DNA of 64,000 nt, taken from NCBI RefSeq assembly GCF_054482525.1, contig NZ_CM137006.1, one strand, 5' to 3'. A model generated the notes under the pieces. The model had not been told where the DNA came from, did no database searches, and saw only the letters and a program-made list of their open reading frames with translations. This document shows, piece by piece, positions 3,006 through 15,598 of this stretch; the first letter of the stretch is position 1, and the number at the start of each line of letters is the position of its first letter. The translations under genes and the position numbers were made by a program.

Positions 3006-5476
3006 TGGCTATCAGTTGGATCCAGCCCAGCTTTGCCGGTGGTGAGATTGGACCGTCGTTGTACGGACGTATCGACATGGCGAAGTACCAGGTGGCATTG
3101 CGCAAGTGCGATAACTTTATCGTGCGGCAGTATGGCGGCGTTGAGAATCGACCTGGTACGCGTTTTGTCGGTGCCGCCAAATACCCAAATCGGAAATGCC
3201 GCCTGATCCCGTTCCAGTTCTCGACGGTTCAGACCTATGCTCTGGAGTTCGGACACCAGTACATGCGCGTTATCAAAGATGGTGCGTTGGTGCTGAACAG
3301 CAGCAATGTTATTTATGAAATTGCCACGCCATATACTGAAGCCGATCTGTTCCGAATTAAATTTACGCAAAGCGCCGACGTGCTTACGCTGGTTCACCCG
3401 GCATACCCGCCGAAAGAGTTGCGCCGCTATGCGCATGACAACTGGCAACTGGTTGATGTGGTAACGAAGAACGGGCCATTTGAAGATATCAATATTGACG
3501 AGTCAGTGACGGTTTATGCCAGCGCCAGCACTGGGACAATTACGTTAACGGCAAGCGCCTCTATTTTTGGCGCGGAGCAGGTAGGCAAATTGTTCTATCT
3601 GGAACAGCCTGCAGTGGATTCTGTGCCGGTATGGGAAACCAGTAAGAGTACGTCGATTGGCGATATTCGCCGTGCAGACAGTAACTACTATCGCGCCGTT
3701 ACAGCAGGAAAAACAGGCACTTTGCGCCCTTCGCATACAGAAGGCACATCATGGGATGGCTGGGGCGGATCCGGTGATGATGATACTGGCATTGAGTGGG
3801 AGTATCTGCACAGTGGTTTTGGCATTGCCCGTATAACTGCTGTAAATGGCACTACTGCAACTGCTGAGGTGATTTCCTATATCCCTTCGCAGGTCGTTGG
3901 CGAGGATAATGCCAGCTATAAATGGGCTAAATATGCCTGGAACAGTGTTAATGGTTATCCTGGCACTGTTGTTTATTATCAACAACGTCTTTACTTCGCC
4001 GCATCGACTGCGTTCCCTCAGACTATCTGGGCCAGCCGTACTGGGGATTATAAGGATTTTGGCAAAAGCAATCCTACGCAGGATGACGACAGAATTATCT
4101 ACACCTATGCCGGGCGTCAGGTTAATGAGATCCGCCACCTGATTGATGTTGGTTCGCTGGTGGCGCTGACTTCCGGAGGTGAGTATGTCATCACCGGCGA
4201 CCAGAACAAAGTGTTAACCCCATCATCATTTGCATTCAGCTCTCAGGGATCAAATGGCTCAAGCAACGTCCCGCCAATTGCCGTGGCGAATATTGCTTTG
4301 TTCGTCCAGGAGAAAGGCAGTGTTGTACGTGATCTGGCCTACTCATTCGATGTTGACGGCTATCAGGGGAACGACCTGACCATCCTTGCCAATCATCTTT
4401 TTCAGAAGCACAGCATTGTTGACTGGTGCTTCTCGATTGTCCCTTACTCCAGCGCCTTCTGCATTCGTGATGACGGTAAATTGCTGGTGATGACCTATTT
4501 GCGTGATCAGCAGGTTTTTGCATGGGCACCACAATCCAGTACCGGGAAATATGAAAGCACATGCAGTATCAGCGAAGGCAATGAAGATGCGGTGTATTTC
4601 GTCGTTAACCGAACCGTTAACGGGCAAACAGTGAGATACATAGAGCGACTGTCCAGCCGTTTATTTACCAGCGATGAAGATGCTTTCTTTGTTGATTCTG
4701 GCCTTAGCTATGATGGAAGAAATACGTCTGACAGAACGATGACCATCACTGGTGGTTCTGGTGAATGGGATTACCGCGCGGAATATACAATCAGTATTTC
4801 TGGTGGTGCGTACTTCACCAGTAGTGATGTCGGTGCGCAACTACAATTCCCTTATACCGGAACTGATCCTGATACTGGCGATGAAGTGTCAAAAGAATTA
4901 CGTTGCGACATTATTTCTGTAACCAGCAATACCGCTGTAGTGGTTCGTCCTAACAGGAACGTCCCATCATCCCTCAGGAATGTGGCCACCACGAACTGGC
5001 AGATGGCGCGCCGGACATTTGGAGGCCTGTCTCATCTTGAAGGCCAGATCGTAAACATTCTCTCTGATGCGAACGTGGAACCACAGAAAGTTGTTTCCGG
5101 AGGTGCCGTCACGCTGGAATCTCCGGGGGCTGTAGTGCACATCGGCCTGCCAATAACTGCTGAATTCGAAACACTGGATATCAACATTAGCGGACAGGAA
5201 ACGCTGCTGGACAAAAAACAGGTGATCCCGTCCGTTACTCTGGTTGTGAATGCCAGTCGCGGCATCTGGGCGACTACGCCCGGCGGTAAATGGTACGAAT
5301 ATCCACAGCGTGAATTCGAGTTCTACGATGATCCTGTTGATGATGCTACCGGAAAAGTAGAAGTGAAACTGGACAGTAACTGGGGCAAAAACGGGCGTGT
5401 AAAAATCCGTCAGCTTGACCCGTTGCCGCTGTCTGTTCTTGCCGTTATTCCTCGCCTTACTGTTGGGGGAGTCTGA
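3005..5476 (+). CDS. Putative tail tubular protein B / nozzle-like protein, 823 aa
   Basis: TGATG overlap with the upstream gene; size and position match T7 gp12. N-terminus is Gly/Pro-rich. Confidence 0.45.
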   Translation: MAISWIQPSFAGGEIGPSLYGRIDMAKYQVALRKCDNFIVRQYGGVENRPGTRFVGAAKYPNRKCRLIPFQFSTVQTYALEFGHQYMRVIKDGALVLNSSNVIYEIATPYTEADLFRIKFTQSADVLTLVHPAYPPKELRRYAHDNWQLVDVVTKNGPFEDINIDESVTVYASASTGTITLTASASIFGAEQVGKLFYLEQPAVDSVPVWETSKSTSIGDIRRADSNYYRAVTAGKTGTLRPSHTEGTSWDGWGGSGDDDTGIEWEYLHSGFGIARITAVNGTTATAEVISYIPSQVVGEDNASYKWAKYAWNSVNGYPGTVVYYQQRLYFAASTAFPQTIWASRTGDYKDFGKSNPTQDDDRIIYTYAGRQVNEIRHLIDVGSLVALTSGGEYVITGDQNKVLTPSSFAFSSQGSNGSSNVPPIAVANIALFVQEKGSVVRDLAYSFDVDGYQGNDLTILANHLFQKHSIVDWCFSIVPYSSAFCIRDDGKLLVMTYLRDQQVFAWAPQSSTGKYESTCSISEGNEDAVYFVVNRTVNGQTVRYIERLSSRLFTSDEDAFFVDSGLSYDGRNTSDRTMTITGGSGEWDYRAEYTISISGGAYFTSSDVGAQLQFPYTGTDPDTGDEVSKELRCDIISVTSNTAVVVRPNRNVPSSLRNVATTNWQMARRTFGGLSHLEGQIVNILSDANVEPQKVVSGGAVTLESPGAVVHIGLPITAEFETLDINISGQETLLDKKQVIPSVTLVVNASRGIWATTPGGKWYEYPQREFEFYDDPVDDATGKVEVKLDSNWGKNGRVKIRQLDPLPLSVLAVIPRLTVGGV

Positions 5477-10802: not shown

Positions 10803-13277
10803 ATGAGACAGGAATGTATACAAGCGGTCCAGCAGGCGGCGCAGCGCACGTTAACGGCGCGAGAAATACAGAACATTGAAGACCGCATTTATCGAAATAT
10901 GCGCTCCATTGCTCGTGATGACCCGATGTCGTGGCGACAACTTTCCGAATCAGAACGGTTGTATCGTGCAGCACAATTGGCATCTGAAGAATTACAGCGA
11001 GAAGCGGCATTAAAGAAACGTCGTGTGGCCCTCACTATAGCCGCACGTCAGAGATTGGATAAATTTATCAATAGCTATCAAGGGGCTGATGGGAAACTTG
11101 GCGCTCTTAACCGTACTATTGCTTTTAATGCAGACGGTAAATCGAATTTCCTCTCTGTTGAATCCAGAACAAAAGCCACCCGTGATTATGCATTGAGTCA
11201 ATTGCAGGAGGCATTCGAAGCAGTTGATCCTCGCTTTTTTGGTCTGTTTGAAGATGAAGCGGGCGTACGTGACCTGATATATGAAATGCGGGGGCAAAAT
11301 ACTGGCAATGCTAAAGCAAGAAAAGGTGCTAAGGCGTGGAGAGAAGTTACAGAGCTGCTGCGCCGCCGGTTTAATGATGCTGGTGGGGACATTGGCTATC
11401 TCGAAAACTGGGGGATCCCTCAACATCATTCTATGGAAAAGGTTGGGGCGGTATCAAAAGATAAATGGGTTAGCGATGTTATAGGTAAGCTGGATCGCAA
11501 ATATTATACCCGAGCCGATGGACAACTGATGAACGATGCCGAGTTGTCTGCATTTCTTGGAGAGGCTTATAACACGATCGCTACTGGTGGGCTGAATAAG
11601 CTTACTGATACCGGAATGCGAATTTCCGGCGCACGTGCTAACCGTGGTAATGCATCACGACAGATACATTTCAAAGATGCAGATTCCTATCTGCAATATC
11701 AGCAACTTTATGGCGATCGCTCTCTATGGGAAATCATGGTCGGTCACCTGGAAGGTATCAGTAAAGATATTGCACTGGTGGAAACATATGGTCCAAACCC
11801 CGATCATGTTTTCCGCTCTCTTCTTGATCAGGTGAAGGCAGAAACGGCAACAGCTAACCCGAGTAAAACCGGTAAAGTCGAGCGGCTGGCGAACAACACA
11901 GAGAATCTGTACAACTTTATTTCCGGAAAGACACAGCCTGTAGCGAATCCGCACATCGCGCGATGGTCTGACAATATCCGCAACTGGCTGGTTGCCAGCA
12001 GACTCGGATCCGCGTTGCTGTCATCGTTCTCTGATCTTGGAACCATGTATCTGTCTGCGAAGGTTACCAACCTTCCAATGAACCAGTTATTCCGCAACCA
12101 GCTTGAAGCTATGGACCCAACGAACCGTACAGAACTTGCGCGGGCGCGCCGCGCTGGTCTGGCGATGGAATCTCTACTTGGCAGCGTTAACCGCTGGGCG
12201 ATGGATAATATGGGGCCGTCTGTGTCTCGTTGGGCTGCAACGGCGGTAATGCGTGCCAGTGGGCTTACAGCATGGTCAGATGCGCACAAGCGCGCCTATG
12301 GCGTAACCATGATGGGAAGCCTGGGAGAAGTAGTGTCACGGACACCAGACCTTCGTCGCCTCGATGACTCTGATTTTCGTATCCTGAAAAGCAAAGGGAT
12401 TACTGACACAGACTGGAGCGTATGGAAGTTGGCGCAACAGGAGGACTGGGGGAACGGTAATAATACGATGCTGACACCGGAAAGCATTATGCGTATCCCT
12501 GATTCAGCAGTTAAACATCTTGGTGAGCCTGAACGCGTGAAATTTGAGGCAATGCGTAAACTGCTCGGTGCCGTAACTGAAGAAGTTGATATGGCTGTTA
12601 TTACACCGGGAGCACGTGAGCAACTGATAACCGGTTCTGGTATTCAGCGTGGAACATGGAAAGGTGAATTAACGAGAAGTGTTTTCCTGTTTAAATCGTT
12701 CCCTATCTCGGTTGTTATGCGTCACTGGTCACGCGCTATGGGTATGCCGTCTGCTGGTGGGCGTGCGGCATATATTGCGACGTTTATTGCCAGTACGACC
12801 ATTCTTGGCGCTTTGTCGCAACAACTTAACGACCTTGCGTCTGGTCGTAATCCTCGAGAGATGACAGGAGAAGATGCTGCTAAATTTTGGCTTGGTGCTC
12901 TACTGAAAGGTGGTGGTCTTGGCCTTTACGGTGACTTTTTATTGTCAGATCACACTAGGTACGGGAGCGGCGCGCTGGCGTCGATGCTTGGCCCGGTAGC
13001 TGGTCTGGTTGATGACGTAGTGAAGATAGCTCAGGGCATACCGCTAAATGCTGTGGAAGGGAAGAGTGAGCAGACTGGTGGTGATCTGGTGAAGCTGGGG
13101 AAAGGTTTGATGCCAGGTGCGAATCTCTGGTACTTGAAGGCGGCTCTCGATCACATGATCTTTAATCAGATGCAGGAGTATTTTTCACCAGGCTATTTGC
13201 GTAAAATGGAGCAACGTTCGAAGAAAGAGTTTAACCAGACATACTGGTGGCGACCTCAGGATGTCACTCCGCAATAA
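10803..13277 (+). CDS. Putative internal virion/ejection protein, 824 aa
   Basis: GAGAGG Shine-Dalgarno; last large gene of the co-oriented structural block. Confidence 0.4.
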   Translation: MRQECIQAVQQAAQRTLTAREIQNIEDRIYRNMRSIARDDPMSWRQLSESERLYRAAQLASEELQREAALKKRRVALTIAARQRLDKFINSYQGADGKLGALNRTIAFNADGKSNFLSVESRTKATRDYALSQLQEAFEAVDPRFFGLFEDEAGVRDLIYEMRGQNTGNAKARKGAKAWREVTELLRRRFNDAGGDIGYLENWGIPQHHSMEKVGAVSKDKWVSDVIGKLDRKYYTRADGQLMNDAELSAFLGEAYNTIATGGLNKLTDTGMRISGARANRGNASRQIHFKDADSYLQYQQLYGDRSLWEIMVGHLEGISKDIALVETYGPNPDHVFRSLLDQVKAETATANPSKTGKVERLANNTENLYNFISGKTQPVANPHIARWSDNIRNWLVASRLGSALLSSFSDLGTMYLSAKVTNLPMNQLFRNQLEAMDPTNRTELARARRAGLAMESLLGSVNRWAMDNMGPSVSRWAATAVMRASGLTAWSDAHKRAYGVTMMGSLGEVVSRTPDLRRLDDSDFRILKSKGITDTDWSVWKLAQQEDWGNGNNTMLTPESIMRIPDSAVKHLGEPERVKFEAMRKLLGAVTEEVDMAVITPGAREQLITGSGIQRGTWKGELTRSVFLFKSFPISVVMRHWSRAMGMPSAGGRAAYIATFIASTTILGALSQQLNDLASGRNPREMTGEDAAKFWLGALLKGGGLGLYGDFLLSDHTRYGSGALASMLGPVAGLVDDVVKIAQGIPLNAVEGKSEQTGGDLVKLGKGLMPGANLWYLKAALDHMIFNQMQEYFSPGYLRKMEQRSKKEFNQTYWWRPQDVTPQ

Positions 13278-13286
13278 GGAAGTGTT

Positions 13287-13460
13287 GTGTTTTTAATTAT
13301 TTTGAGTGTGATAATTTCTGGTGGATTGTTATTTATTGACCGCTACAAATATTTTCTTAACCCTCAGACTCAAGCTATTTGCTGGTTCATCTTTGTTGTG
13401 CAGGGAGTAGTTCTTGTTGCAAGCCTTATTGAGGGGAGGCCTCTTATTTTTACTGGGTAA
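13287..13460 (+). CDS. Small hydrophobic protein, 57 aa, GTG start (below the ORF-track length cutoff)
   Basis: Hand translation: VFLIILSVIISGGLLFIDRYKYFLNPQTQAICWFIFVVQGVVLVASLIEGRPLIFTG. AAGGAAG Shine-Dalgarno 4 nt upstream; two predicted membrane helices; AT-rich. Confidence 0.3.
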   Translation: MFLIILSVIISGGLLFIDRYKYFLNPQTQAICWFIFVVQGVVLVASLIEGRPLIFTG

Positions 13461-13472
13461 ATAGGTGACTAC

Positions 13473-13769
13473 ATGCAAGCTATAGGATTCATTGTTTATA
13501 TCGTCGTTGGTCTTTTTCAGTTGGCAGCAATTATGGCTGGGCTTGAATCATGGTGGGGATTGCACTGGATAATTGCAGCCCCCATTGCTTTCATCGTGAG
13601 CTATATTCCATTTGTTGGAGCGATTGTTGGTATGGTTGGCGCTGTGGATGTATGGCGGTGGGAGTGGTGGCAGGCTGGCCTTCTCTTCTTTGGTGGGATC
13701 ATCTTTGCTATTGTCTGCGGTGGAATGTCATCATTTTTCGAATGGCTATCATTCAGAAAAGGGACGTGA
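13473..13769 (+). CDS. Small integral membrane protein, 98 aa (three predicted helices, Trp-rich loops)
   Basis: ORF with AGGTGA Shine-Dalgarno 6 nt upstream; strongly hydrophobic segments. Confidence 0.5.
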   Translation: MQAIGFIVYIVVGLFQLAAIMAGLESWWGLHWIIAAPIAFIVSYIPFVGAIVGMVGAVDVWRWEWWQAGLLFFGGIIFAIVCGGMSSFFEWLSFRKGT

Positions 13770-13800
13770 CATGTCACAGGCCGCTTTCGCGGCCTTGTTT

Positions 13801-13962
13801 TTAACGAATGCCACCGCCGCCCGGACGGGAATCCGCAGAACGCCCACCGCAGCGGGAGCCGTCAGCGGCAGTATCGCTGTCGTGCTGACAACGACCGGCA
13901 AAGGCCTGAGTTGAAGCTACCAGAGACAACAAAACGAACAGTGCAGCAAATGCTTTTTTCAT
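13801..13962 (-). CDS. Small protein with canonical Sec signal peptide, 53 aa; antisense-overlaps an alternative + strand 47-aa ORF (13771..13914)
   Basis: MKKAFAALFVLLSLVASTQAFA then a Gly/Arg/Asp-rich 31-residue tail with two Cys. Upstream TTGACG-16nt-TATAGA promoter-like element. Only one of the two overlapping ORFs is likely real. Confidence 0.3.
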   Translation of the reverse strand: MKKAFAALFVLLSLVASTQAFAGRCQHDSDTAADGSRCGGRSADSRPGGGGIR

Positions 13963-14035
13963 TGTGAAATTTCCATCTATAAGCCACCTCAATGTGGCGT
14001 CAATGAGTGTAGCACTGACTTTTGTTTCGTCCACA

Positions 14036-14058
14036 AAAAATCCCGCAGCGCGGGCTTA
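14036..14058 (-). terminator. Intrinsic terminator downstream of the toxin-like gene
   Basis: Minus strand reads aagCCCGCgctGCGGGattttttg. Confidence 0.5.
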
Positions 14059-14601
14059 TTCCTTCCATTTATCAGAAAAAAGATCTTCTTCTAAAGGCAT
14101 TGGTTCTGTTTTTGTTTTCTCAAAGAATTGATAACTGATAGTGATTGCTGCCTCTTTAAACTCTTCTTGCTCAGTTATGTTGTGGGCATCTGCGTCAACA
14201 AAAAACATAACCAGCGCATCACGATTGTGATTTACCGAATAAACTAAAAAGCAATTACTTGTTGGTATGCATTTTACTTGCACAGACGCTATTTTTTTCC
14301 ATGCATCCCAAGATGATTTTTTACCAGTGTGTTTTTTATCACTATCTTCTGGAATATAGTCTTGGTTATCGACATGAGTATGCCTGACATTTAGTTTAAG
14401 CATTTCTGTCGGACGAGCAAATGCAGCATCTTTACCAAGAGATGGATGGTATCCCGTTTTCCAATACTGGGTAAAGGCATCAGATACTTTCTTCAGCTCA
14501 AGATCAGATGCACAAAGGGCCGAGAAATTTTGCGTATGCAATACTCGACCCTTATATCTGACAATTTGATTTTTATCATTCTGCGACGCAGACGAACTCA
14601 T
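14056..14601 (-). CDS. Hypothetical toxin-like accessory protein, 181 aa (tentative resemblance to YafO-family toxins; unverified)
   Basis: Track ORF 14056..14628; ATG at 14601 with AAGGAA Shine-Dalgarno. AT-rich, opposite strand to virion genes. Motifs YHPSLGKDAAFARP and VRHTHV recalled as YafO-like, from memory only. Confidence 0.5.
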   Translation of the reverse strand: MSSSASQNDKNQIVRYKGRVLHTQNFSALCASDLELKKVSDAFTQYWKTGYHPSLGKDAAFARPTEMLKLNVRHTHVDNQDYIPEDSDKKHTGKKSSWDAWKKIASVQVKCIPTSNCFLVYSVNHNRDALVMFFVDADAHNITEQEEFKEAAITISYQFFEKTKTEPMPLEEDLFSDKWKE

Positions 14602-14755
14602 AATTTTCCTTATTGTTACGAGAATCAAAGAAAGCGCGGGATACGCGACTTGCGTGATCTTTTGTCATAGTAACTTTTACGCACTCTACGCTTCCATTGA
14701 AAGAACGTCTTGCGGCAGCTTGCGCTCTACGCATCTGCAATTTTTCGTTTCGCAT
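14576..14755 (-). CDS. Small basic ORF, 59 aa, overlapping the start of the toxin-like gene (candidate antitoxin/regulator)
   Basis: Hand translation: MRNEKLQMRRAQAAARRSFNGSVECVKVTMTKDHASRVSRAFFDSRNNKENYEFVCVAE. GAGGT Shine-Dalgarno 6 nt upstream; 26-nt overlap with the downstream gene. Not in ORF track (<60 aa). Confidence 0.25.
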   Translation of the reverse strand: MRNEKLQMRRAQAAARRSFNGSVECVKVTMTKDHASRVSRAFFDSRNNKENYEFVCVAE

Positions 14756-14902
14756 GACATTACCTCATATCTCATAAGTTCATTACACGGATTAATAAAA
14801 ATGAAACCAATCCGTTTACCCTTGAGGTAATAGTACGCTATTCACCCACAGTCTGCAATCTGTACAGAATTATTTAAAGGCACATCCCTGTGCCGCCGCC
14901 CG

Positions 14903-15598
14903 TCAGAAGAACCCTGCCTTGTCGTTGATGTACTCCGCGTGCGTCTGGATATCACGCAGGCATTTGCTCACACCGACGATGTAGCAGAACATGGTGGTCA
15001 GCTCCGCCGCCGCGCCCGATACGTCGTGCCCGTCGTCCTGTAACTGGTTCAGCAGATTCATCAGCAGTGAGTTCTCCGTCAGGCCGAGAACACCAGACGG
15101 CGAATGAATCAGGCTGCGGTAGCCGGGCTTCAGTGGGGCACTGTAGGTTTTGTTCTCTATCTTCATCGCCTGCATCACTGCTGATGCTGTGGCGTTGGCT
15201 ACCTGGTCGGCAACCATCTTTATGCGCTCTTCCTGCGGGAGCGAGTTTTTAATGTAACTTCCGGTGCGGCGGATCTGAGGAAGAACCTCACCTGTAACCC
15301 ATTTACGAAAGCGGTATGGGATAGTGCCTGGTGTCACTGCGTCGCGGCAGCGGAGGATCAGTGTGTAGAGGCCTGACTCGGAGATGATGATCGATTCTTG
15401 CTCACCGCCAGGGGTGTCGGTTGAAGCGACGCCCTTCTCATCATCATCAAGTTTTCGAACAGCATCTCGATGGTTTGCTATGCCTATAGCCCGACAAACA
15501 TCTGAAGCGATAAACCATGGCTCACCATTAATGACGATTACTCGTATATCGGCTTGGGATTCGAAAGAAAAAATGGACGTGCTTTTTGTAGCTGTCAT
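14903..15598 (-). CDS. Bro-N (KilA-N-like) domain protein, antirepressor-like, 231 aa
   Basis: N-terminal pattern F.F...IRV....GEPWF.A.DVC...G......A...LDDDEK...T.GG.Q...ISESGLY.LI.R......FR.WVT.EVLP.IRRTG matches Bro-N; AAAAGG Shine-Dalgarno. Confidence 0.7.
   Translation of the reverse strand: MTATKSTSIFSFESQADIRVIVINGEPWFIASDVCRAIGIANHRDAVRKLDDDEKGVASTDTPGGEQESIIISESGLYTLILRCRDAVTPGTIPYRFRKWVTGEVLPQIRRTGSYIKNSLPQEERIKMVADQVANATASAVMQAMKIENKTYSAPLKPGYRSLIHSPSGVLGLTENSLLMNLLNQLQDDGHDVSGAAAELTTMFCYIVGVSKCLRDIQTHAEYINDKAGFF

Follow-up and report, generated by a model that had tools for sequence, protein, structure and literature searches.

The closest described systems are small phage proteins that act at the cell envelope. 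SieA of phage P22 is an inner-membrane exclusion protein with three transmembrane (TM) segments, and escape mutations against it were found in gp16 and gp20 (PMC10461980). In P22, sieA adjoins the last ejection gene (gene 16), is convergent with it and has its own promoter. The gp15 moron of HK97 is a small inner-membrane exclusion protein (PMC3594210), and Spackle of T4 acts in the periplasm, where it inhibits the tail lysozyme gp5 (PMC7677548). Here we describe positions 13282 to 13962 of a 64000-nucleotide (nt) stretch of contig NZ_CM137006.1 (NCBI RefSeq assembly GCF_054482525.1; the whole stretch is called the window), where several very small open reading frames (ORFs) follow the gene for an internal virion protein of 824 amino acids (aa).

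All four small ORFs listed here by the first-pass annotation are present (ORF57, ORF98 and ORF47 on the + strand and the 53-aa ORF, gene53, on the - strand; Table 1). It had treated them as one cluster; the region is actually the junction of two convergent transcription units sharing one terminator, and the small ORFs sit in the variable stretch that separates the ejection-type genes from the tailspike gene. As judged from codon-level conservation, ORF57, ORF98 and gene53 are three genuine, conserved genes for small envelope proteins and ORF47 is an artefact. Two of the products have hydrophobic membrane cores and the third is a Sec-type precursor, as had been proposed. The element is of an ordinary kind, a moron or cargo region of small envelope proteins, two of whose genes (ORF98 and gene53) already belong to unnamed PHROG families. 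Within it, gene53 forms a self-contained, widely travelled cassette, and its mature peptide appears as a stand-alone copy of an unnamed module.

Coding evidence for the small genes

The gene53 product (PGAP accession WP_000708858) matches phrog_14503 ('membrane associated protein') and phrog_3117 over its full length and with high significance. Members of its family were found in Escherichia, Shigella, Citrobacter, Klebsiella, Cronobacter, Franconibacter, Salmonella, Pectobacterium, Dickeya and Rahnella. When they were aligned, the 22-residue N-terminus was variable and always hydrophobic, and the mature part was near-invariant (G[NR]CQHDxDTAADGSRCGGRSADSRPGG). The IMG/VR scan gave only gene53 proteins that are 100% identical, and divergent DNA was taken from individual loci and plasmid records. 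For the 25-codon core of 11 such divergent copies, the proportion of synonymous differences (pS) was 0.74 and that of nonsynonymous differences (pN) was 0.067, giving a pN/pS of 0.09. Third positions vary in 24 of the 25 codons, and synonymous sites are close to saturation. The signal region evolves fast (pN/pS 0.50, compared with 0.09 in the mature part). The gene53 frame is also the sole one that stays open in the divergent homologues. These values indicate a real gene, beyond what chance would give, under very strong purifying selection.

A 47-aa coding option antisense to gene53 had also been proposed. The frame exists, with its ATG one base past the ORF98 stop codon and a Shine-Dalgarno-like AAGGGA 8 nt ahead of it, but it does not stand as a gene: stop codons interrupt it in 12 of 12 divergent homologues, translation is not conserved and the hairpin of the late-operon terminator (13778-13795) falls inside it. 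ORF47 is best read as a by-product of stop-poor antisense DNA with 67% GC, no more than expected by chance, although it may occasionally be translated in this phage. PHROG family 25977, to which it belongs, exists only through annotators calling the frame. A different antisense frame, which shares its wobble positions with gene53, gave a mirror-image low pN/pS (0.13); it is not ORF47. The question of which of the two antisense ORFs is real is thereby settled in favour of gene53. The GC-rich patch noted earlier was measured at 67% GC (13800-13899), compared with 34-42% in the flanks, and this is partly because the gene53 peptide is itself rich in Gly, Arg, Ala and Pro.

ORF57 has two hydrophobic cores and the GTG start that had been described. 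Its homologues (56-58 aa, 67-98% identity) occur in Salmonella, Citrobacter, Klebsiella and Enterobacter and share an invariant DRYKYFL loop. No PHROG family was matched by ORF57. With a pN/pS of 0.32 and as the sole frame staying open in divergent homologues, ORF57 shows the pattern of a real gene, more than a chance frame, under purifying selection. In the three copies compared the start was never ATG (GTG, GTG and TTG), and a strong Shine-Dalgarno sequence lies right at the upstream stop codon; its counterparts are AAGGAGGGGG ahead of the GTG of the Salmonella homologue and AAGGGGGA ahead of the TTG of the Klebsiella homologue. ORF57 is evidently coupled in translation to the 824-aa gene. 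A weak terminator-like hairpin followed by a T-run was observed at 13423-13446, within the 3' end of ORF57 and just ahead of ORF98, and could lower read-through into ORF98.

The 98-aa three-helix membrane protein was likewise recovered, with three hydrophobic cores and a helical AlphaFold2 (AF2) model (mean pLDDT 90.9; helices at residues 2-28, 32-42/46-59 with a kink at Pro46, and 65-97). ORF98 matches phrog_3075 over its full length (E-value 1.6e-54), a family labelled 'unknown function'. Its homologues (94-103 aa, down to 44% identity) were found in Dickeya, Yersinia, Cronobacter, Kosakonia and Salmonella; the N-terminus is conserved in the family (motif GAxxxWxWxWWQAxLLFFG), and the Trp-rich loop of ORF98 reads DVWRWEWWQ. 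The pN/pS of 0.26, together with a frame that is the only one to stay open in divergent homologues, indicates a real gene under purifying selection rather than a chance ORF.

In 74 of 80 IMG/VR contigs, a long ORF on the same strand (at least 580 aa, mostly the 824-aa gene) ends 2-553 nt upstream of the ORF98 relative. The same arrangement was observed in a Yersinia prophage (with a 1130-aa gene) and a Salmonella prophage (with an 833-aa gene), and ORF57, ORF98 and gene50 (the gene53 homologue) also occur together in a Klebsiella Uetakevirus. The ORF57-ORF98 pair is present in 204-215 of 5426 complete E. coli genomes.

These results correct errors that are common in annotations: a version of ORF98 cut to 79 aa, the frequent omission of ORF57 and an occasional call of the 47-aa frame. 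PGAP begins ORF98 at an internal ATG (window 13533-13769) and leaves out ORF57. Calls of 118 aa or 149 aa in some genomes result from a 1-nt indel between ORF57 and ORF98.

As had been stated in the first-pass annotation, no family can be named for these proteins. Pfam and NCBIfam gave no significant match for any small protein of the region, and PADLOC (E-value of 1 or lower) gave none for ORF57, ORF98, gene53, ORF47, the YafO-like protein encoded next to gene53 or the 59-aa ORF overlapping that gene. PDB sequence searches with both family profiles returned nothing usable, and the PHROG matches are to unnamed families only. An Rfam scan of 12800-15200 found no RNA family, its sole match being an archaeal snoRNA (small nucleolar RNA) at an E-value of 0.44.

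Table 1 Coordinates of the features at the convergent junction and around it (positions in the window)
Feature	Position	Strand	Remarks
824-aa last internal-virion (ejection-type) protein gene	10803..13277	+	824-aa counterpart of phiV10 gp20 'virion structural protein'; position of epsilon15 gp17
Shine-Dalgarno AAGGAAG	13276..13282	+	overlaps stop codon of 824-aa gene; 4 nt ahead of ORF57 GTG
ORF57, predicted 57-aa two-helix membrane micro-protein, GTG start	13287..13460	+	homologues, pN/pS, hydrophobic cores
ORF98, predicted 98-aa three-helix inner-membrane-type protein, PHROG 3075	13473..13769	+	true start read as ATG 13473; AGGTGA 4 nt ahead
Perfect 12-bp palindrome GTGACATGTCAC	13766..13777	.	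left homology boundary; holds ORF98 stop codon and ORF47 ATG
ORF47, 47-aa frame, read as no gene	13771..13914	+	stops in homologues; holds terminator hairpin
Rho-independent terminator of late operon	13778..13803	+	hairpin 13778-13795 and T-tract; terminator scan, fold
gene53, 53-aa predicted Sec precursor	13801..13962	-	signal peptide 13962-13897; mature 31-aa GRCQHDSDTAADGSRCGGRSADSRPGGGGIR 13896-13804
gene53 putative control region	13976..14011	-	-10-like TACACT 14011-14006; alternative TTGACG-16 nt-TATAGA 14003-13976
Terminator of upstream YafO-like gene	14035..14054	-	terminator scan (14054-14042); right cassette boundary

The gene53 peptide, its module and its cassette

The earlier description of gene53 as a 53-aa - strand ORF with a Sec signal peptide was upheld across 21 precursors of the family, in which the n-region, the hydrophobic core and the residues at -3 and -1 all fit. 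The signal was 22 residues long with A, S or V at -3 in 21 of 21 precursors, a net charge of +2 and Ala at -1 were each found in 20 of 21, and the 9-aa hydropathy maximum ranged from 2.6 to 3.7. Cleavage is predicted after Ala22 and would release a periplasmic peptide of 31 residues, in which a disulfide between Cys25 and Cys38 (Cys-x12-Cys) is probable. The AF2 model of gene53 is moderately confident and shows a compact loop (pLDDT 76.5 overall and 87 over residues 31-40).

The family consensus at the cleavage site is FAG[NR]C. We also considered gene53 as an exclusion protein of the lipoprotein type (Cor, Llp, Ltp), and this was rejected as there is no lipobox and the first Cys is at +3 (cleavage between AFA and GRC). 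In NCBIfam, gene53 gave weak matches to HxsA3 and MarB, far below their cut-offs and mostly over the signal peptide, and Pfam gave nothing for the 53-aa protein at E-values up to 10. Excalibur (PF05901) and DUF3761, two look-alikes among the calcium-binding or Cys-loop mini-domains, were also discarded, since no Pfam family was matched by gene53 or by 17 larger proteins bearing the module.

When a profile of the mature peptide was run against 1.84 billion proteins, 352 cluster representatives were obtained at an E-value of 0.001 or lower. They define a module of about 30 residues (consensus GNCxYxxDxAxDGSRCGxR[SA]AxxRPGG) in exported proteins of Gamma-, Beta- and Alphaproteobacteria, including Burkholderia, Caballeronia, Rhizobium and marine samples. 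Among the top 146 profile matches, the module was C-terminal in 78, often on lipoproteins with a membrane-spanning stretch, was a stand-alone secreted peptide in 26, and in 21 directly followed the signal peptide and preceded a membrane helix and a cytoplasmic domain; 10 proteins, which overlap these classes, carried two or more copies. A true lipobox was seen only in distant relatives, such as a Caballeronia plasmid protein (2812-3099 of locus L097). No Pfam, NCBIfam or PDB match was found for the module, and the literature search gave no paper on it.

The cassette is about 300 bp long (13766-14060), with terminator hairpins at both ends, and runs from the upstream gene's terminator through a region resembling a promoter, a hairpin in the leader and gene53 to the shared terminator. 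When 80 viral contigs with an identical gene53 protein were compared, the homology limits clustered at 13760-13770 and 14040-14080, and the neighbours of the copies were diverse, with at least 8 kinds on the downstream side and at least 8 on the upstream side. The palindrome GTGACATGTCAC at the left limit, next to the shared terminator, is also conserved in phiV10 and in prophages of Klebsiella and Cronobacter, and may be a recombination joint or a protein-binding site. The hairpin at 13778-13795 folds on both strands and is common to the late operon and the convergent gene53, whose stop codon lies in the T-tract. Both arms change together in homologues (GGCCGC/GCGGCC versus GGCCAC/GTGGCC), and a GC-rich hairpin was seen by eye 3' of the gene53 stop codon in 9 of 13 divergent contexts.

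The promoter-like element that had been ascribed to gene53 can be read by eye in its upstream region, but a consensus promoter scan flags neither of the two readings given in Table 1, and the promoter is therefore putative. In six divergent upstream regions, the upstream terminator was accompanied by a -10-like hexamer (TACACT, TAAACT, TACAAT or TATAAAAT) and a short GCCAC...GTGGC hairpin, and TACACT is better conserved than the alternative. The hairpin (GCCAC-N6-GTGGC at 13998-13983) would lie in the 5' leader of gene53. Its conservation depends in part on G-U pairs of the sense strand, which points to a structured mRNA leader.

The cassette is missing in epsilon15 and is reduced to a 23-nt remnant in phiV10. 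This remnant (5371-5393 of the phiV10 locus extract) is TTAACGAATGCCGCCTCCGCCCG, the last approximately 23 nt of gene53, after the palindrome and the shared terminator, and it looks like a deletion scar of a cassette formerly present there. Elsewhere, members of the gene53 family were found after RelB/YafQ, after a YafO-like gene, after the Q antiterminator gene, amid tail genes in Pectobacterium and Dickeya, and on large Klebsiella and Rahnella plasmids. In a lambdoid prophage, a gene53 homologue ends a cI-Rap1a-gene50 operon and is followed by a terminator. Rap1a-like genes adjoin gene53 homologues in two unrelated prophages (4711-5094 of locus L087 and 3618-3992 of locus L093). On Mob plasmids of 3.1-3.4 kb (one of 3.36 kb), the gene53 homologue is the only annotated gene besides the mobilisation genes. 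Among the 5426 complete E. coli genomes, gene53 is present in 426-473 (about 8%), and this carriage, compared with 204-215 for the ORF57-ORF98 pair, fits independent mobility.

A gene carried in this share of E. coli genomes, on phages and plasmids and under strong selection, yet with no named family, structure or paper, is a cheap and well-defined target for a phage- or toxin-challenge experiment. It is conceivable, but on present evidence unlikely, that the gene53 peptide represents a new class of minimal mobile periplasmic protection factor, which would block a conserved envelope step of incoming phages or of periplasm-acting toxins, and that the module is an undescribed extracytoplasmic binding domain of Proteobacteria.

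The spot just upstream of the cassette (approximately 14060-14900) is hypervariable, with at least 8 unrelated genes in the 80 viral contigs, including genes for membrane and YafO-like proteins. The stretch between Bro-N and gene53 looks like a hotspot for defence or toxin-antitoxin cargo. In the window, it holds a YafO-like gene of 181/190 aa (14056-14755, - strand; phrog_1651), which PGAP calls 'YafO family toxin' and which matches Pfam YafO_toxin only at an E-value of 0.0019. A 59-aa ORF (14576-14755, phrog_6685) overlaps the 5' end of this gene and could be its antitoxin.

Prophage setting and candidate roles

At 97-99% identity, the window corresponds to podovirus prophages of E. coli of the epsilon15/phiV10 type (genus Uetakevirus). 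In an E. coli chromosome that matches it fully, the small ORFs come after three large genes for internal virion proteins, of which the last encodes the 824-aa protein. The opposite strand then carries the 53-aa gene, the gene for a toxin of the YafO family, Bro-N and an 85-aa gene. Beyond these are the tail fibre/tailspike gene, a pair of holin genes and a gene for a GH19 endolysin. The version in the prototype, epsilon15, is minimal: gp17 and gp18 (64 aa) are followed by a terminator, by gp19 in reverse orientation (minus strand) and by the tailspike gene. The order in phiV10 is gp20 (824 aa), gp21 (46 aa, '2-TM'), the same terminator and Bro-N.

In other prophages, the same slot is filled by lipoproteins, signal-peptide proteins and a Rap1a-like periplasmic protein, all from PHROG families of unknown function. 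Signal peptides or lipoboxes were present in 7 of 8 alternative occupants, and one occupant matched Pfam Rap1a. The idea of the first-pass annotation that this position favours envelope-type accessory proteins gains from these occupants.

Envelope-level protection of the superinfection-exclusion type would be the most likely role of the slot occupants, and we give it a rough probability of 0.4. It is rated likeliest because almost all slot occupants are envelope-targeted, because a gene53 homologue lies in a cI operon, and because of the analogies with P22 sieA, HK97 gp15 and Spackle. The slot would be the place where the prophage keeps its cargo of envelope-acting accessory proteins, and these would alter the envelope of the lysogen or of the infected cell in such a way that an incoming phage, or another envelope-targeting attack, fails. 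Like P22 SieA and HK97 gp15, ORF57 and ORF98 would counter the ejection-protein conduit at the inner membrane. The gene53 peptide would be produced by the prophage and, like T4 Spackle, have its effect in the periplasm. If all three were ordinary exclusion factors, the result would be incremental. The variable slot of epsilon15-type phages, at the boundary of the ejection genes and the tailspike gene, is in any case a good place to seek exclusion or immunity functions.

Several observations weigh against this protective role. No sequence or fold similarity to a proven exclusion protein was found in the comparisons with SieA, PADLOC, PDB and BFVD. ORF98 was excluded as a homologue of the SieA family by BLASTP (E-value of 20 against P22 SieA) and by hhalign with the ORF98 family profile (probability 0.2%), and Foldseek searches of PDB and BFVD with the ORF98 model returned only matches with E-values above 4. 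A literature search by protein name and accession gave nothing relevant to these proteins. The consensus promoter scan found no own promoter for ORF57 and ORF98, which are co-directional with the late operon and end it. Lysogen expression, needed for classical exclusion, is therefore not supported for these two genes, and they may be made only during lytic growth. The presence of gene53 on plasmids, and of its module in larger chromosomal proteins of Burkholderia, Rhizobium and marine bacteria, means that the target need not be a phage. Surface modification, the other function suggested earlier, fares no better in the searches, which found no homology to any proven surface-modification protein.

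In epsilon15, phiV10 and this prophage alike, the gene immediately behind the gp17-type gene (the ORF57 position) encodes a 2-TM micro-protein, and this constant suits a helper of the lytic cycle as well as it suits cargo. It is possible, though we hold this only tentatively, that ORF57 and perhaps ORF98 are lytic-cycle helpers of the ejection-protein module, small inner-membrane proteins produced alongside the 824-aa protein as its partners. Such partners might keep the 824-aa protein out of the membrane of the producing cell, aid its packaging or exclude superinfection in lytic growth only. The coupling of ORF57 to the 824-aa gene, its conserved non-ATG start, the missing separate promoter and the location of ORF98 behind a long ORF in 74 of 80 loci and in three further lineages are all consistent with this. 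On the other side, ORF98 is absent from epsilon15 and phiV10 and is therefore not essential, and the slot in other prophages holds periplasmic proteins and lipoproteins that are clearly not virion components. Moreover, the published lists of epsilon15 virion proteins are not known to include small membrane proteins, which also speaks against a helper role.

Rap1a (PF18602) is a family of immunity proteins of the type VI secretion system. The gene53 homologue that directly follows a Rap1a-like gene in the cI operon of the lambdoid prophage, and another that is convergent with a second Rap1a-like gene in a Klebsiella prophage, bring in an immunity function. The gene53 peptide would then be an immunity protein or inhibitor against weapons that act in the periplasm (type VI amidase effectors, colicins, lysozymes), carried as general fitness cargo. 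The small Mob plasmids, with their single annotated non-mobilisation gene, and the occurrence of the module in non-phage exported proteins of many Proteobacteria also agree with such a function. We nevertheless consider it unlikely. The association with Rap1a is limited to two contexts, the Pfam, NCBIfam, PADLOC and PDB searches revealed no similarity to a known immunity protein, and most of the gene53 copies seen are in podovirus prophages, beside the virion-protein and tailspike region.

ORF98 was also considered as a holin-like or lysis-timing protein expressed late, as its size, its predicted N-out/C-in layout of three helices and its short basic C-terminus are like those of class I holins, it is located at the end of the late operon, and it gave a weak Pfam match to Phage_holin_5_2 (E-value of 0.027). 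This match is not significant, however, and the fold matches, with two holins among them at E-values of about 9, are not significant either (E-values above 4). Two holin genes and a GH19 endolysin gene are already present beyond the tailspike gene, and ORF98 was never beside an endolysin gene in the loci examined, so that a holin role is very improbable.

Least credible of all is that gene53 encodes a toxin, bacteriocin or signalling peptide secreted to act beyond the producing cell, like the Sec-exported, disulfide-bonded heat-stable enterotoxins. It does encode a small Sec precursor with a Cys pair, on plasmids and prophages. However, lipoproteins and single-pass proteins carry this module as a membrane-tethered domain, and it is found in plant-associated bacteria and in bacteria from soil and the sea. 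The cassette brings along no partner gene for export or immunity, and no similarity to named toxin families was found in Pfam and NCBIfam.

Comparison with described systems

The nearest counterparts of ORF57 by position are epsilon15 gp18 (64 aa), whose start overlaps the preceding gene, and phiV10 gp21 (46 aa). Both are 2-TM proteins that share with ORF57 the slot, the two-helix layout and the tight coupling to the internal-virion gene ahead of them. In BLASTP, phiV10 gp21 showed no similarity to ORF57, and epsilon15 gp18 was set beside ORF57 by eye only.

Compared with P22 SieA (PMC10461980 / PMC10883804), ORF98 is likewise predicted to be a small inner-membrane protein with three helices, and its gene is likewise located between the last ejection-protein gene and the tailspike region of a short-tailed temperate phage. 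However, SieA has 162-164 aa and ORF98 only 98 aa, and ORF98 is co-directional with the late operon and without its own promoter, whereas sieA is convergent. It is gene53 that shares the position and orientation of sieA, being convergent with the ejection gene, and it encodes a secreted peptide rather than a membrane protein. We consider the three helices of ORF98 beside ejection-protein genes to be a resemblance to SieA only.

The morons of HK97 and HK022 (PMC3594210) are similar to gene53 in several respects. gene53 is an add-on in comparison with epsilon15 and phiV10, deviates in GC content, comes with a terminator and a promoter-like region, and occurs across unrelated phages. Like HK97 gp15, it encodes a small envelope protein within the virion-gene region. 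It differs in that its product is predicted to be exported and cleaved instead of inserted in the membrane, its promoter is putative, no homology to gp15/YebO was found, and the gene is also carried by plasmids.

T4 Spackle is larger than the gene53 peptide and is encoded by an early gene of a virulent phage. By description, the gene53 peptide is nevertheless predicted to be, like Spackle, a small phage-encoded protein of the periplasm, where Spackle blocks the wall-penetrating device of an incoming phage.

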